Notes: generated by a model not told the origin, from the letters alone. A stretch of DNA of 64,000 nt from Patescibacteria group bacterium (GCA_049322615.1 JBMORX010000010.1:25416-89415), one strand, 5' to 3'. Shown: positions 22,338 through 27,156, numbered from the stretch's first letter. Numbers and translations: made by a program.

Positions 22338-23478
22338 ATCTTCGGTATGAGATAGAAGTTTTCGCCAAGCTTGCAACCACGGAAGCACAGAAGGTTGCAG
22401 AAGCACAGAAAGTGCCCCGCTTGGCGGGGCTTTTCAGTTTTACATACCTTGAAAAATGCACCTTAATAAGTGAATAGAAAATCTATTCACATCCTTGACA
22501 ACCGCGCTCAGCGCGGTTTAAGCCGAGCTCAGCTCGGCAATCAAGATGTGACAGGAAACGAACAAAAGTTCGATTTCTTGCCCGCCTAAATTTTCGCACT
22601 CGGCCTTTCAGTACTATTCGTACACGCCTCGTGCCAAAATTTTTGGCGGACTGCAAAAATTGAACTTCGTTCAATTTTTTTGAGAGTTTGATCCTGGCTC
22701 AGGATGAACGCTGGCGGCGTGCCTTAGGCATGCAAGTCGATCGGTCGTTCGTGTCTCACTTTCGTTCGACACTTACTCCCTCAATAGCAAATATTAAATA
22801 GTAAAAATCAAAAATACATAGTAAACATTAAAAATATTTAAATTTTGATATGTATATTTACTATTTAATTTTTAATATTTAATTTTGAGCGAGTGGTGAG
22901 CGGGAGCGAGACACGAGCGATAGAGGCAGACGGGTGAGTAATGCGTACCAACCTACCTCCAAGTGAAGCATAGCCATTCGAAAGGATGGGTAATACTGCA
23001 TACGGTGGGTGGAGTTCTAAGGGTAGAAATGAAAAATGAAAATAGAAAAAATAAGCAAGCTTGTTGCTAGCGCAATAAAAATGACAATTAAAAATTTTAA
23101 AATTTTACATTGTAATTTTTCATTTTTATTTTTTAGTTTTTAATTTTATCAGTTTATTTAGCAACTTTTACTTTTAGATCTCCATCCATCAAAGAGAGTA
23201 ACTTCTCGCTCGGAGATGGGGGTGCGTCCTATCAGCTTGTTGGTGGGGTAAAAGCCTACCAAGGCGATGACGGGTAGCTGGACTGAGAGGTCGGTCAGCC
23301 ACAAGGGGACTGAGAGACGGCCCCTACACCTACGGGTGGCAGCAACTAGGAATCGTTCGCAATGGGGGAAACCCTGACGACGCGACGCCGCGTGGAGGAT
23401 GAAGGCCTTCGGGTTGTAAACTCCTTAATCCCGAACGATAGCGAGGGAGGATTAAGCACCCACTAACTACGTGCCAGC

Positions 23479-23721
23479 CACGTACAATTTTTGCGATGGC
23501 TGGTGGCGCGTAGTCTAAATCCGACTATATGCTGGGAACTCTTTTGATGTCCGCAAACAGTGTTGTGGTTTTTATGACCCGCGTCAAAAGACAATCAGCA
23601 GGCAACCCGACGTTCAGTTTACATAAACGTGGGAAGTCCTCAGAGACTATACGTCGGATTCCGATAGAATCGGGAAAGATATAGTCCAAATGTTACGTAG
23701 CAAAAATGTTACGTGGCCAGC
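23479..23721 (+). mobile_element. Group I intron (no ORF) at the 16S 515-region
   Basis: Splits GTGCCAGC|..|AGTTGCGGTAA; contains the P7-type core cagagactatacgtcgg...gatatagtcc. Confidence 0.6.
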
Positions 23722-25015
23722 AGTTGCGGTAAGACGTAGGGTGCAAGCGTTATCCGGATTTATTGGGCGTAAGGCGTTTCGTAGGCGGTCCGATGAGTCC
23801 CGACTTAAATACCCCGACTCAATCGGGGAAGTGGTTGGGATACTATCGGACTTGAGGTTTTTGGGAGGTGCTGGAATTCGCGGTGAAGCAGTGAAATGCG
23901 TTGATATCGCGAGGAACACCAAGGGCGAAGGCAAACACCTAAAAAACATCCCGTAAATTGCCTTCGGCAATAACGGGACTCCCGTAAAGAGCAATCTTTA
24001 TGGGAATTCTGTATGCCAAAAGAATTGAGGGAACCCCGTTAGTCTTGAGCGTAAGCGAAAGACTTTACGGGGCCTGACGCTGAGGAACGAAAGCTAGGGG
24101 AGCGAAAGGGATTAGAGACCCCTGTAGTCCTAGCCGTAAACTATGCTCGCTAGATGCCCGGCTTGTGCTTCGCACAAGTTTCCGAATTAATCCGAATGCT
24201 TGGTTTTGGTTTAAAATTTATTCGGATAAATTCGGATGAAGAACTTGACCTAGAAGATCAGTCTCAACATCCGAATAAATCCAAATAAGAAAAGCAAACA
24301 AACACATTAGGATTAAATTCGGATATCTCGTGCGGAGCACGAGCTAGGTGTCGTAAGCTAACGCGTTAAGCGAGCCGCCTGGGAAGTACGGCCGCAAGGC
24401 TAAAACTTAAAGGAATTGACGGGGAGCTGCACAACCAGGGGAGCGTGTGGTTTAATTCGAGACGAAACGAAGGACCTTACCTGGGTTTGACATGCCGACG
24501 TTCTAGTCCGATGAAAATCGGACAAGTCCGCAAGGAGGTCGGCACAGCTGCTGCATGGCTGTCGTCAGCTCGTGCCGTGGGGTGTTGGCTTCAGTGCCAT
24601 AACGAGCGCAACCCCTATTGTCTGTTAAATTTTCAGACGAAACCGCCCCGCCTATTTTGTCGCGGTTGTTAACACTATTTATTCTTGAGTTACAACCTGA
24701 ATTTAGTTAATAATGGCGGCGCAAGGGCGAATAGCCCTGCCCTATTCGGGCACAGCGCCGCGATTGGAATCAACGGCGGCAAATATGGCGGGGAGGAAGG
24801 AGGGGACGACGTCAAGTCAGCACGGCGCTTATGTCCAGGGCAACACACACACTACAATGGACAAAAACAGCGAGTTGCAAGCACGTAAGTGTAAGCTAAT
24901 CTCGGAAATTTGTCCTCAGTTCAGATTGTGGGCTGCAACTCGCCCACATGAAGATGGACTTGGTAGTAATCGCGGGTCAGCAAACCGCGGTGAATACGTT
25001 CTCAGCTCTTGTACA

Positions 25016-26053
25016 AAAATTGCGCCTACCGGTTTGGTTTTCCATTCCGTTGAAATCGGAACCAAAAAGAATAATTTTTGGAAGCGAAATAACATCCTCC
25101 GATGGTGACATCGAAGCGAGAAGGGTTAAAGTAGCATTTTCTAGCTTGCAGTCGAGACGGTCCCGCCTATTTGATGACCTTTCGTACAAATAGGGAAATC
25201 ACTTATTCTAATTTTGCCTTTAAAAATAAGCAAAATAGGCGGGATATTTGGGCTCGAGATGGAAAAGAAAGGAAAACCAAATTACGTAGGGAGATCTGCC
25301 ATTGACCCACCAAAAAATTGCAGCATGAGCCGCAGTTGAAATCAACTAAGGCGAATGCTAAAATTTAGGCGGGTAGTTGTCGGTGTGAACTAACAACGTA
25401 AATGGTAGAAGTCTGCAGAGTGCGTAGTACCCCGCCGAAGCGCACCACGAGCCGTGTATGAATAATACTGAAAAGGCGAGTGGCAAGCGAATGGCTGGGG
25501 GAAGGCACGTAAACTATCCAAATGGGCGCATACAAAATCATCAGTCCTTGGTATATCGTTGGTTTTACCGAGGGAGAAGGTTGTTTTGCCATAATTCTTT
25601 CGAGACATAAAACAAAGAAGGCTAAAAGGGATGCCGGACTTTGTTTTGAAATTGAGCTTCGGGGGGACGACAAACCAATCCTTGAAAGAATTCAAAAGAG
25701 GCTGGGGTGTGGTCAAATTATTGATCTTGAGTACGAGCGTTATGGTTGGAAACCCCATGTGAAGTATGTCGTTAGAAAGCAAAAAGATCTTTTCTTTAAG
25801 GTGATTCCTTTTTTCAAACAGTTTCCGCTACAAGGCAAAAAACAAAAAGATTTTGAGCTTTTTTGCCAAGCCGCGGAAATTATAAAAAATAGGGAACACT
25901 TAAAAGATGATGGAATCAAAAAACTTGAAAAAATCAGGGAATTTATGAATGAGCGCCGACCGATGTTTGGATAGTCATTCGCGAGGGTGCGGGAAAACCG
26001 CGTGCCCCGTGAGAATAGAAAATATTTTGAGCAATCAGATATTTATCTATGAA
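25016..26053 (+). mobile_element. Intron at the 16S 1391-type site carrying a LAGLIDADG HEG
   Basis: Exon junction cttgtaca|cactgcccgtca reconstitutes CTTGTACACAC(C/T)GCCCGTCA. Confidence 0.65.
25522..25974 (+). CDS. LAGLIDADG homing endonuclease (single-motif, 150 aa)
   Basis: WYIVGFTEGEGCFAI motif; inside a 16S intron. Confidence 0.8.
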   Translation: MGAYKIISPWYIVGFTEGEGCFAIILSRHKTKKAKRDAGLCFEIELRGDDKPILERIQKRLGCGQIIDLEYERYGWKPHVKYVVRKQKDLFFKVIPFFKQFPLQGKKQKDFELFCQAAEIIKNREHLKDDGIKKLEKIREFMNERRPMFG

Positions 26054-26144
26054 CACTGCCCGTCAGATGAACAAAGTCAGGGGCACTTGAAGTCCCGATT
26101 TAATCGAGATTAAAGTGAACTTGGCGATGAGCATCAAGTCGTAA

Positions 26145-26920
26145 AAAAGTTGCGACTCCCGACGGTAACGTCGGGAAAAAATCTGGCTATATCGGGGAAG
26201 CCTAAATCTGCTAAAATTAAATTAGGGATATGGTAACCGCGAGGGAACCTCGATTTAATCGGGGACTCCGTAGAGACTATACGCCAGTTCCTGTCAGAAA
26301 ATGACGAAAGCATATTTGCTGGGAGCACTCCATGATGCTACCGAGCGAAAAACCACCTATCGCATTGCTCAAAAGAGCAAATCGTATATTGAATTTCTAG
26401 CCGAAGGGATTAGATCCTTGGGCCGAAAAGCCTGGATGTACAAGGAAGGAAAATCAAGAAATCTTTATGTAGTTGAATTTTCTAAATCCTTATTAAAAAA
26501 TACTAAAATTTCCTCTCGGCAAGAAAAAATTGACTATGTGCGTGGCTATTTTGATGCGGAGGGTGGAATTGCTCGAGATCCGAAAGTGAATTATTATTTG
26601 TATTTTGCTCAGAAAAATTTGGGAGATTTACAAAAAACTAAACATTTTTTGGAAGAATTAGGCATCAGTTGTGGAAGAATTCATAACCCAAGCAAAAGGG
26701 CGGATCCAGATTACTGGCGATTCTTTATAAGAGCAAAATCTTATGAAGATTTTGCCAGAATAATTGGTTCGGATCATCCAGAAAAAAGTCATTTTCTGAG
26801 AGGATAAAGAGATAGTCCATGCCTCTGGAAACAGAAGGAAGAACCCCGAATAATTTTACCGTTCGCCGGAGTATCATTCGAACTGCGGCTCACGGAGCAA
26901 TTCAACGGGGTGAACATGAA
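26145..26920 (+). mobile_element. Group I intron at the 16S 1506-type site carrying a LAGLIDADG HEG
   Basis: Splits GAAGTCGTAA|CAAGGTA; P7-type strands gtagagactatacgcc (26272) and agatagtcc (26812). Confidence 0.6.
26301..26807 (+). CDS. LAGLIDADG homing endonuclease (168 aa)
   Basis: RGYFDAEGGIA motif; second motif region LLGALHDATE; inside a 16S intron. Confidence 0.7.
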   Translation: MTKAYLLGALHDATERKTTYRIAQKSKSYIEFLAEGIRSLGRKAWMYKEGKSRNLYVVEFSKSLLKNTKISSRQEKIDYVRGYFDAEGGIARDPKVNYYLYFAQKNLGDLQKTKHFLEELGISCGRIHNPSKRADPDYWRFFIRAKSYEDFARIIGSDHPEKSHFLRG

Positions 26921-27156
26921 CAAGGTATCCCTACTGGAAGGTGGGGATGGATCACCTCCTTTCTAAGGAGTAATTCGGAGCGATTAAGCAACTAAGCAAT
27001 TGAGCTATTGAGTTTTTCTTAATAGCTTAGTAGCTGAATAGCTTAATAGCTAAAATACACCCGAGAAGGCGAACTCGTTAAAATCGCCAAATTTCCTGTC
27101 ACGTAAGAACGTTGATTTTGCTCTGCAAAATCTTACGTTCAACGTGACTAGGGACG

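Follow-up and report, generated by a model that had tools for sequence, protein, structure and literature searches.

The 16S ribosomal RNA (rRNA) gene in a 64,000-nucleotide (nt) stretch of DNA from a Patescibacteria group bacterium (GCA_049322615.1 JBMORX010000010.1:25416-89415; hereafter the window, with all coordinates counted from its first nucleotide) spans about 4.29 kb (22676–26962, + strand) and is interrupted by exactly eight inserts; the window contains no other 16S gene. We read it, with a probability of roughly 85%, as the 16S gene of a member of the Patescibacteria, or candidate phyla radiation (CPR), that carries three self-splicing introns and five hairpin inserts without an open reading frame (ORF). 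Two of the introns would belong to group I (after U516 and U1498) and one to group II (at 1395/1396), and the two longest of the three contain genes for predicted LAGLIDADG endonucleases (Table 1). The anatomy of the gene, the matches to covariance models, the covariation and the presence or absence of the inserts among relatives, on which this reading is built, were all observed directly.

The Rfam model of the bacterial small subunit (SSU) rRNA (SSU_rRNA_bacteria, RF00177) matched from position 22676 with 1079 bits, and together with the alignments it identifies a complete bacterial 16S rRNA gene. The 3' end reported by Rfam (25051) is an artefact, because the 1-kb intron at 1396 is too long for the model to span, and the last ~140 model positions were forced into the first bases of that intron. 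A pattern search placed the true 3' end (GGATCACCTCCTT) at 26949–26961, and the true 3' exons, located by eye and pattern search, are marked by CACTGCCCGTCA at 26054, by AAGTCGT, which ends at 26142, and by AACAAGGTA, which starts at 26919. The six inserts upstream of 1396 were defined by alignment to four related CPR 16S genes, which lack most of the inserts, and to Escherichia coli rrsH; the boundary of insert 4 is uncertain by ~6 nt. When the gene was aligned pairwise to E. coli at a low gap-extension cost, its 3' exons became spread across the introns, and this alignment was not used. The inserts measure 124–1038 nt each and 2818 nt summed, and the exons amount to ~1.47 kb with a G+C content (GC) of 53%. 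After removal of the eight inserts in silico, the ~1.47-kb product aligned with E. coli 16S rRNA from end to end at 69% identity, and no surplus stretch of at least 6 nt was left relative to E. coli; the differences of this kind were deletions in the window sequence only, and such exon deletions are typical of CPR. All universal 16S blocks are intact and stand in the same order as in E. coli. The closest 16S genes retrieved, those of L003 and L017 (the latter labelled Candidatus Microgenomates bacterium), are 78% identical. An earlier reading of the stretch made from its sequence alone (the sequence-only reading) had described a CPR-type 16S gene expanded by at least eight inserts, three of them of 243, 1038 and 776 nt with defined flanking words, and AT-rich hairpins in variable regions V1 and V2. 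The alignment confirmed the number as exactly eight, the lengths and flanking words proved exact, and the two hairpins have 27% and 23% GC, respectively.

The 243-nt insert 3 scored 57.3 bits with the Rfam group I intron model (Intron_gpI, RF00028; threshold 50), in agreement with its earlier description as an ORF-less group I intron in the 515 region. The word GCCAGC stands at both borders of the insert, so that the DNA sequence fits seven junction positions equally well. The junction had been drawn after C522; the sole placement that satisfies the group I rules (a U·G pair in pairing P1, a pairing P10 and a terminal G) is the one after U516. There, the exon sequence CUACGU pairs with the guide GCGUAG (23508–23513) to form P1, with U516 opposite G, and the terminal G falls at 23715. 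Just 5' of the guide lies GCUGG, which can pair with CCAGC at the 5' end of the intron (extended P1) or with CCAGC in exon 2 (P10), and its pairing first with the intron copy and later with the exon copy accounts for the repetition of the word. In L009, a Levybacteria genome, the 516 site likewise holds an intron, which shares the guide and core of the window intron (53 bits). From these elements we infer a guanosine-initiated removal in two steps, which would use the P1 U·G pair, P10 and the terminal G. The canonical P1/P10/terminal-G logic and an Rfam match above threshold are shared with the group I introns of bacterial and organellar rRNA genes. The insertion point is the well-known S516 site of eukaryotic nuclear SSU group I introns; the window intron is like these in its insertion point and differs from them in having a bacterial host, in being only 243 nt long and in lacking an ORF. 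In the flanking exons (23455–23472 and 23716–23735), the near-universal C525 and C526 are both U (AGTTGCGG), and G506 is replaced by A alongside U525/U526, which preserves one pair of the 530 pseudoknot.

The second group I intron, insert 8, follows U1498. Its junction was slid within GTCGT/AA (here and below the slash marks the junction) to the position where a U precedes the 5' junction and the terminal G lies at 26918; its earlier description as a group I intron, 776 nt long and carrying a LAGLIDADG gene, was supported, and the 1506-type site given for it was not. Within the guide GUU-GCGAC (26149–26156), GCGAC (26152–26156) pairs with the exon sequence GUCGU, with U1498 opposite G (P1), and GUU pairs with AAC of exon 2 (P10). 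The sequences AAGUCGU/, GUUGCGAC and ACAUG/AACAAGG are conserved at the 1498 site in 7 genomes, and the site is uninterrupted in eight relatives. An ORF-less homologue at this site in L015 scored 55.1 bits with Intron_gpI, above the threshold. The LAGLIDADG_3 protein encoded by the window intron contains two LAGLIDADG-like motifs, and a sequence search against solved structures revealed no relative with a solved structure. Homologues of the protein at the 1498 site in L011, L021, L007 and L019 are 46–71% identical, and the one in L003 is degraded; this distribution fits a cycle of endonuclease gain, decay and loss. The U1498 intron would be a group I element that hosts a predicted LAGLIDADG_3 endonuclease gene in its P8 region.

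The five hairpin inserts (1, 2, 4, 5 and 6) lack ORFs, hold no ORF with a Pfam match (Pfam was run on the gene's two ORFs) and gave no match to an intron model in Rfam. They continue or adjoin the host helices 6, 10, 22, 26 and 40, and their folding z-scores relative to shuffled sequences were −9.2 (insert 1, which folds as a single long hairpin), −5.8 (insert 2), −5.9 (insert 4), −8.9 (insert 5) and −5.0 (insert 6). All five are missing from the nearest relatives retrieved, namely the four CPR 16S genes. Copies of insert 1 are found in the 23S gene at 31676–31779 (82% identity) and 34305–34406 (80%), and insert 5, the repeated unit of which covers ~24161–24359, has a 23S copy at 31856–32027 (84.5% identical over 174 nt). 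Insert 4 has no copy elsewhere in the window, and the core of insert 5 found no match in a metagenome scan. Their sequences suggest that the five inserts are repeated hairpin elements resembling intervening sequences (IVS) and are possibly mobile.

Four of the hairpins sit at the tips of surface helices (6, 10, 26 and 40), where other organisms tolerate extra RNA, no intron model recognizes them, and a regular-expression search found no RNase III signature in the 64-kb window, which is too small to conclude from; these points would suit permanent expansion segments that are retained in the mature 16S rRNA. We nevertheless consider retention rather unlikely. The very low GC of the two 5'-most inserts (23–27%, versus 53% in the exons) and the long perfect stems are typical of IVS processed by RNase III, the 80–85% identical copies in unrelated 23S helices point to selfish repeats and not to lineage-conserved expansions, the hairpins are absent from the nearest relatives, and removal of inserts from the transcripts has been reported for CPR (Brown et al. 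2015, in the summary given by PMC11270868). By analogy with known IVS, excision of the five hairpins from the precursor is favoured, with modest confidence: an RNase specific for double strands would most likely cut them out with no subsequent religation; otherwise they would be tolerated at the ribosome surface. Bacterial rRNA IVS, which RNase III excises without religation, are known in 23S helices 9, 25 and 45 and rarely in 16S helix 6 and helices 10–11. The window hairpins are like them in being AT-rich, self-complementary, placed at helix tips and sporadic among relatives. They are unlike them in that five occur in one 16S gene, which is unusual outside CPR, that insert 4 sits at a helix base, and that their excision is one that we infer.

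Another hairpin, of ~65 nt, occurs in two of the 16S introns and in the 23S gene (Table 1). Its core (CCGTTCGCCKKAGT...ACTGCGGCTYAYGG) has 21 predicted pairs, 10 of which show compensatory changes. In the relatives L003 (2150–2228) and L006 (1268–1336) it lies just up- or downstream of the 16S gene, and an exact-pattern scan recovered it from 46 metagenome contigs (L032–L077), in some cases 16–130 nt from 16S, transfer RNA (tRNA) or transfer-messenger RNA genes and in many without a nearby stable-RNA gene. No Rfam family was found for the two 16S copies, the 23S copy being covered by the gathering-threshold scan only. A tentative reading of these sequence relationships is that the hairpins represent, instead of lineage-specific expansions, families of small palindromic mobile elements that would copy between unrelated 16S and 23S helix tips without an endonuclease gene of their own, and that may even invade the introns and the regions bordering other stable-RNA genes.

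The largest insert, the 1038-nt insert 7, had been taken for a group I intron at a 1391-type site and turned out to be group IIC-like and located at 1395/1396. Its bounds are ambiguous by 1 nt (25016–26053 is equally possible from sequence alone), and its borders are common to 18 homologous introns: CTTGTAC(A)/AAA..AAATTGCGCC at the 5' side and ATCTCAGA(A)/CACCGCCCGTCA at the 3' side. The group II model RF01998 matched 17 homologous introns at the 1396 site with 38–54 bits (threshold 35), in the segment just 5' of the intron ORF. The hairpin identified as domain V displays several hallmarks of that domain, namely a GAAAA loop, a bulge of 2 nt and a CGC triad (25980–25982) in which the middle G has U as its pairing partner. 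In a set of 16 sequences, 99.5% of the cells of this hairpin were paired and 5 of the 13 pairs showed compensatory changes; none of 500 shuffles reached the observed covariation score, and slid controls were 30–55% paired. A bulge equivalent to the bulged A of domain VI is present in most homologues, and in this structural model lariat-type splicing via A26045 would be possible. In the loop of a conserved hairpin that corresponds to exon-binding site 1 (EBS1), GUACA pairs with the exon sequence UGUAC, and loop and exon covary three ways: GUACA/UGUAC in the window, GUGCA/UGCAC in L016 and GUGUGCA/UGCACAC in L018. This covariation, as expected of EBS1 with intron-binding site 1, places the 5' junction in the window after C1395. 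The A-rich linker at the 5' end comprises 5 nt in the window and 7–11 nt in most relatives. Judged by these features, insert 7 is a group II intron of the rns-1396 / 16IS9 family, and its designation as IIC-like is drawn by analogy from the published family (PMC13190283) and from the CGC triad. In L018 and L019 (labelled Patescibacteria and Saccharibacteria, respectively), a variant of the intron without a linker has its junction after C1397, two bases further on, and an EBS1 loop lengthened to GUGUGCA, which matches the shifted junction; by sequence, this looks like a natural retargeting through a joint change of loop and site. In the exon downstream of the intron, C1400 is U (CACTGCCCG, 26054–26065), as it is in L016.

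The usual hosts of LAGLIDADG genes are group I introns, and the other two introns of the gene belong to this group, which would favour the view that every one of the three large inserts is a group I intron, the 1038-nt one at a 1391-type site among them. We regard this as very improbable. At the 1396 site the base preceding the junction is C or A and the intron closes with A; there is neither a U before the 5' junction nor a terminal G, and no placement under the group I rules provided both while restoring the universal TGTACACACYGCCCGT. Over 25016–26053 Intron_gpI had no match at E ≤ 1, the group II model matches the 17 homologues, and the features of domain V, domain VI and EBS1 are backed by covariation. 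Moreover, the literature puts both the 1396 site and the family in group II (PMC11270868, PMC13190283). The sequence-only reading of the inserts is supported in part by the covariance-model check that it had recommended: the insert in the 515 region exceeds the RF00028 threshold, the 776-nt insert reaches 29.4 bits, and the 1038-nt insert is unmatched.

In line with the proposal that both long inserts carry LAGLIDADG genes, Pfam assigned their two intact ORFs to LAGLIDADG_1 and LAGLIDADG_3, respectively (E-values in Table 1). The acidic motifs GFTEGEG, GALHDA and GYFDAEG are found in the two translations. The LAGLIDADG_1 protein has 145 homologues, all of which, where an organism is named, are from CPR, and it matches each half of I-OnuI-family enzymes (~1e-42). 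In the 1396 intron, a predicted single-domain LAGLIDADG protein encoded in domain IV would take the place of a reverse transcriptase; as a homodimer, this enzyme would cleave 16S alleles that lack the intron and in this way spread the intron at the DNA level. The predicted intron-less targets of the 150-aa and 168-aa proteins (aa, amino acids) are TCTTGTACACACTGCCCGTCA and CAAGTCGTAACAAGGTATCC, respectively. I-ShaI, another CPR enzyme, which originates from a 23S insert, is active (PMC11270868).

Several observations weigh against the reading of the gene as one with three introns and five excisable hairpins. The U1498 intron of the window stays under the Rfam threshold with Intron_gpI (E = 1e-4 for the score given above), because the 507-nt ORF sits in its P8 region, and the 1396 intron of the window reaches only 27.7 bits with RF01998, below the threshold of 35, because its copy contains three extra nested segments. 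The model of domains V and VI (RF00029) had no match in the window (E ≤ 1) or in seven homologous loci (E ≤ 0.01), so that domain V had to be shown through covariation. In addition, the 1396 intron has neither the canonical GUGYG 5' end, in place of which it has the linker and UUGCG, nor the 3' AY, since it ends in GA; given the linker in all rns-1396 members, the non-canonical 5' end is a family-specific variant. The missing RNase III signature described above counts on the same side. That the gene is dead or chimeric, a pseudogene or assembly artefact with accumulated junk, is scarcely credible in spite of its extreme length and of the capacity of metagenome assemblies to mis-join repeats such as the inserts repeated in 23S: the universal 16S blocks are all preserved in their normal order, neither endonuclease ORF is broken, the precise, conserved intron boundaries are common to other genomes, the gene sits in an ordinary 16S–tRNA-Ile–tRNA-Ala–23S–5S operon, a single rRNA operon is usual in CPR genomes (PMC11270868), and a contig of an independent assembly (Logan, SRR32167786) is 100% identical over 25454–27347 (1.9 kb), so that this stretch is no assembly artefact.

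Multi-insert 16S genes of CPR are already well documented, and the window gene fits their description. Tsurumaki et al. 2024 (PMC11270868) reported that 48% of CPR 16S genes carry inserts, up to 16 of them and up to 5,627 bp per gene; the eight inserts of the window and their 2.8 kb lie within this range, and the suggestion of the sequence-only reading that the combination might be undescribed had to be given up. According to the same study, group I introns occur at several sites of CPR 16S genes, together with many short, uncharacterised ORF-less inserts in variable helices, and ORF-bearing and ORF-less inserts are found at the same site. Group II-like inserts were reported only at ~1400 (16IS9) and mostly with LAGLIDADG_1 (a LAGLIDADG gene in 39 of 53, a reverse transcriptase in none), and LAGLIDADG_3 was confined to 16S inserts (16IS5 and 16IS10) (PMC11270868). 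The recurrent sites, the intron classes and the ORF-less hairpins of the window gene are alike, and nothing fundamental differs. By sequence comparison, other CPR genomes have members of all three intron families at the corresponding sites (516, 1396 and 1498). Tsurumaki et al. 2024 (PMC11270868) do not mention hairpin inserts with sequences common to 16S and 23S within a genome, and the sharing of hairpins among 16S, 23S and introns, which the sequence-only reading lists as a finding of its own, may go slightly beyond published accounts. The bacterial IIC family rns-1396 (Liu et al. 2026, PMC13190283) is characterised by a 5' linker in all members, the lack of EBS2 and a single-motif endonuclease in domain IV. 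The window intron has the same site, a 5' linker, no EBS2 that could be identified and a single-motif enzyme in domain IV, which, as in the family, is related to fungal I-OnuI-type enzymes. According to the account in PMC13190283, the family was first seen in Thiomargarita (Salman et al. 2012); likened to these introns by their published description, the window intron differs in its CPR host, which replaces Thiotrichaceae, and in its extra nested hairpins, such as that at 25305–25375.

Table 1. Inserts of the 16S rRNA gene and elements located within them or in the 23S gene.
Feature	Position	Strand	Description
Insert 1	22750–22907	+	158 nt, 27% GC, hairpin extension of helix 6 (V1), ORF-less
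Insert 2	23003–23177	+	175 nt, 23% GC, hairpin at helix 10 tip (V2)
Insert 3	23473–23715	+	243-nt ORF-less group I intron after U516
Insert 4	~23943–24066	+	124 nt, module of three hairpins, 3' side/base of helix 22 (E. coli ~742–750)
Insert 5	24169–24341	+	173-nt hairpin, helix 26 tip (V5)
Insert 6	24658–24788	+	131-nt branched hairpin, helix 40 tip (V7)
Insert 7	25015–26052	+	1038-nt group IIC-like intron at 1395/1396
5' linker AAAAA	25015–25019	+	1396 intron
5' motif UUGCGCC	25020–25026	+	1396 intron
EBS1 loop UUCGUACAAAU	25181–25191	+	Loop of conserved hairpin, 1396 intron
~65-nt hairpin copy	25305–25375	-	Inside 1396 group II intron; absent from homologous introns
Domain II–III region	25374–25478	+	1396 intron
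LAGLIDADG_1 gene	25522–25974	+	150 aa, single domain, in domain IV; PF00961, 2.2e-21
Domain V	25979–26012	+	34-nt hairpin 3' of ORF
Domain VI	26015–26050	+	Bulged A at 26045, 7 nt from 3' junction
Insert 8	26143–26918	+	776-nt group I intron after U1498
P7 strands of U1498 intron	26270–26283 and 26808–26818	+	
LAGLIDADG_3 gene	26301–26807	+	168 aa, P8 region of U1498 intron; PF14528, 1.9e-12
~65-nt hairpin copy	26840–26912	+	Near 3' end of U1498 intron; absent from homologous introns
~65-nt hairpin copy	33718–33792	+	Within 23S gene

The remainder of the operon is enlarged as well. The 23S gene (31503–35313) measures 3811 nt, compared with 2925 positions in the model. The first 600 of these positions take inserts of 124, 186, 111 and ~125 nt, among them some in the classic IVS regions of helices 9 and 25; several of the 23S inserts are 80–85% identical to the inserts in 16S helices 6 and 26. 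Farther along the gene, at 34411–34434, lies a group I-like P7 motif. The operon spacers (26963–31502) are stretched to 1.8 kb between 16S and tRNA-Ile and to 2.5 kb between tRNA-Ile and tRNA-Ala, and their ORFs include 29167–29982 (+, 271 aa) and 27847–28551 (-, proline-rich). The spacers also contain a 56-nt repeat (27604–27659 and 28570–28625, 98% identical) and, directly upstream of the real tRNA-Ile and tRNA-Ala, two 43-nt copies of a sequence resembling a tRNA 5' half (GGGCGATTAGCTCAGTTGGTTAGAGC...; 28762–28804 and 31289–31331, 86% identical). About 50 nt upstream of the complete 5S gene (36736–36851) is a partial 5S-like segment (36634–36686, 39.3 bits, model positions 14–66), which shares a 57-nt repeat of 77% identity with it. 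Among the relatives, L003, L007, L011, L015 and L016 have CPR-type 16S genes with the same introns and are titled 'uncultured Gammaproteobacteria bacterium', which is probably a labelling error.

The inserts also affect the binding sites of common 16S primers. The best genomic site for 515F, at 23714, has 4 mismatches: two at the 5' end of the primer are caused by the intron, and two internal ones (U525 and U526) by divergence of the exon. As 17 of the 19 primer bases are contiguous in exon 2, the earlier claim that the intron makes the gene invisible to 515F/806R surveys was overstated and named the wrong cause, although the intron does add the two 5' mismatches. One mismatch occurs in the 806R site and none in that of 27F, and introns interrupt the sites of 1391R and 1492R. 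The amplicon of 515F and 806R would be ~417 bp long, versus ~291 bp, and would include the 124-nt insert 4; a full-length amplicon would measure 4.3 kb. In practice, surveys would miss or mis-size this 16S gene. Current understanding is unchanged by these results, the general picture having been published in 2015 and 2024. The window gene adds a covariation-supported CPR example to the rare LAGLIDADG-carrying group II introns, and it brings together three kinds of selfish RNA, namely group I introns, a LAGLIDADG-bearing group II intron and hairpin inserts, in one essential and presumably single-copy gene.

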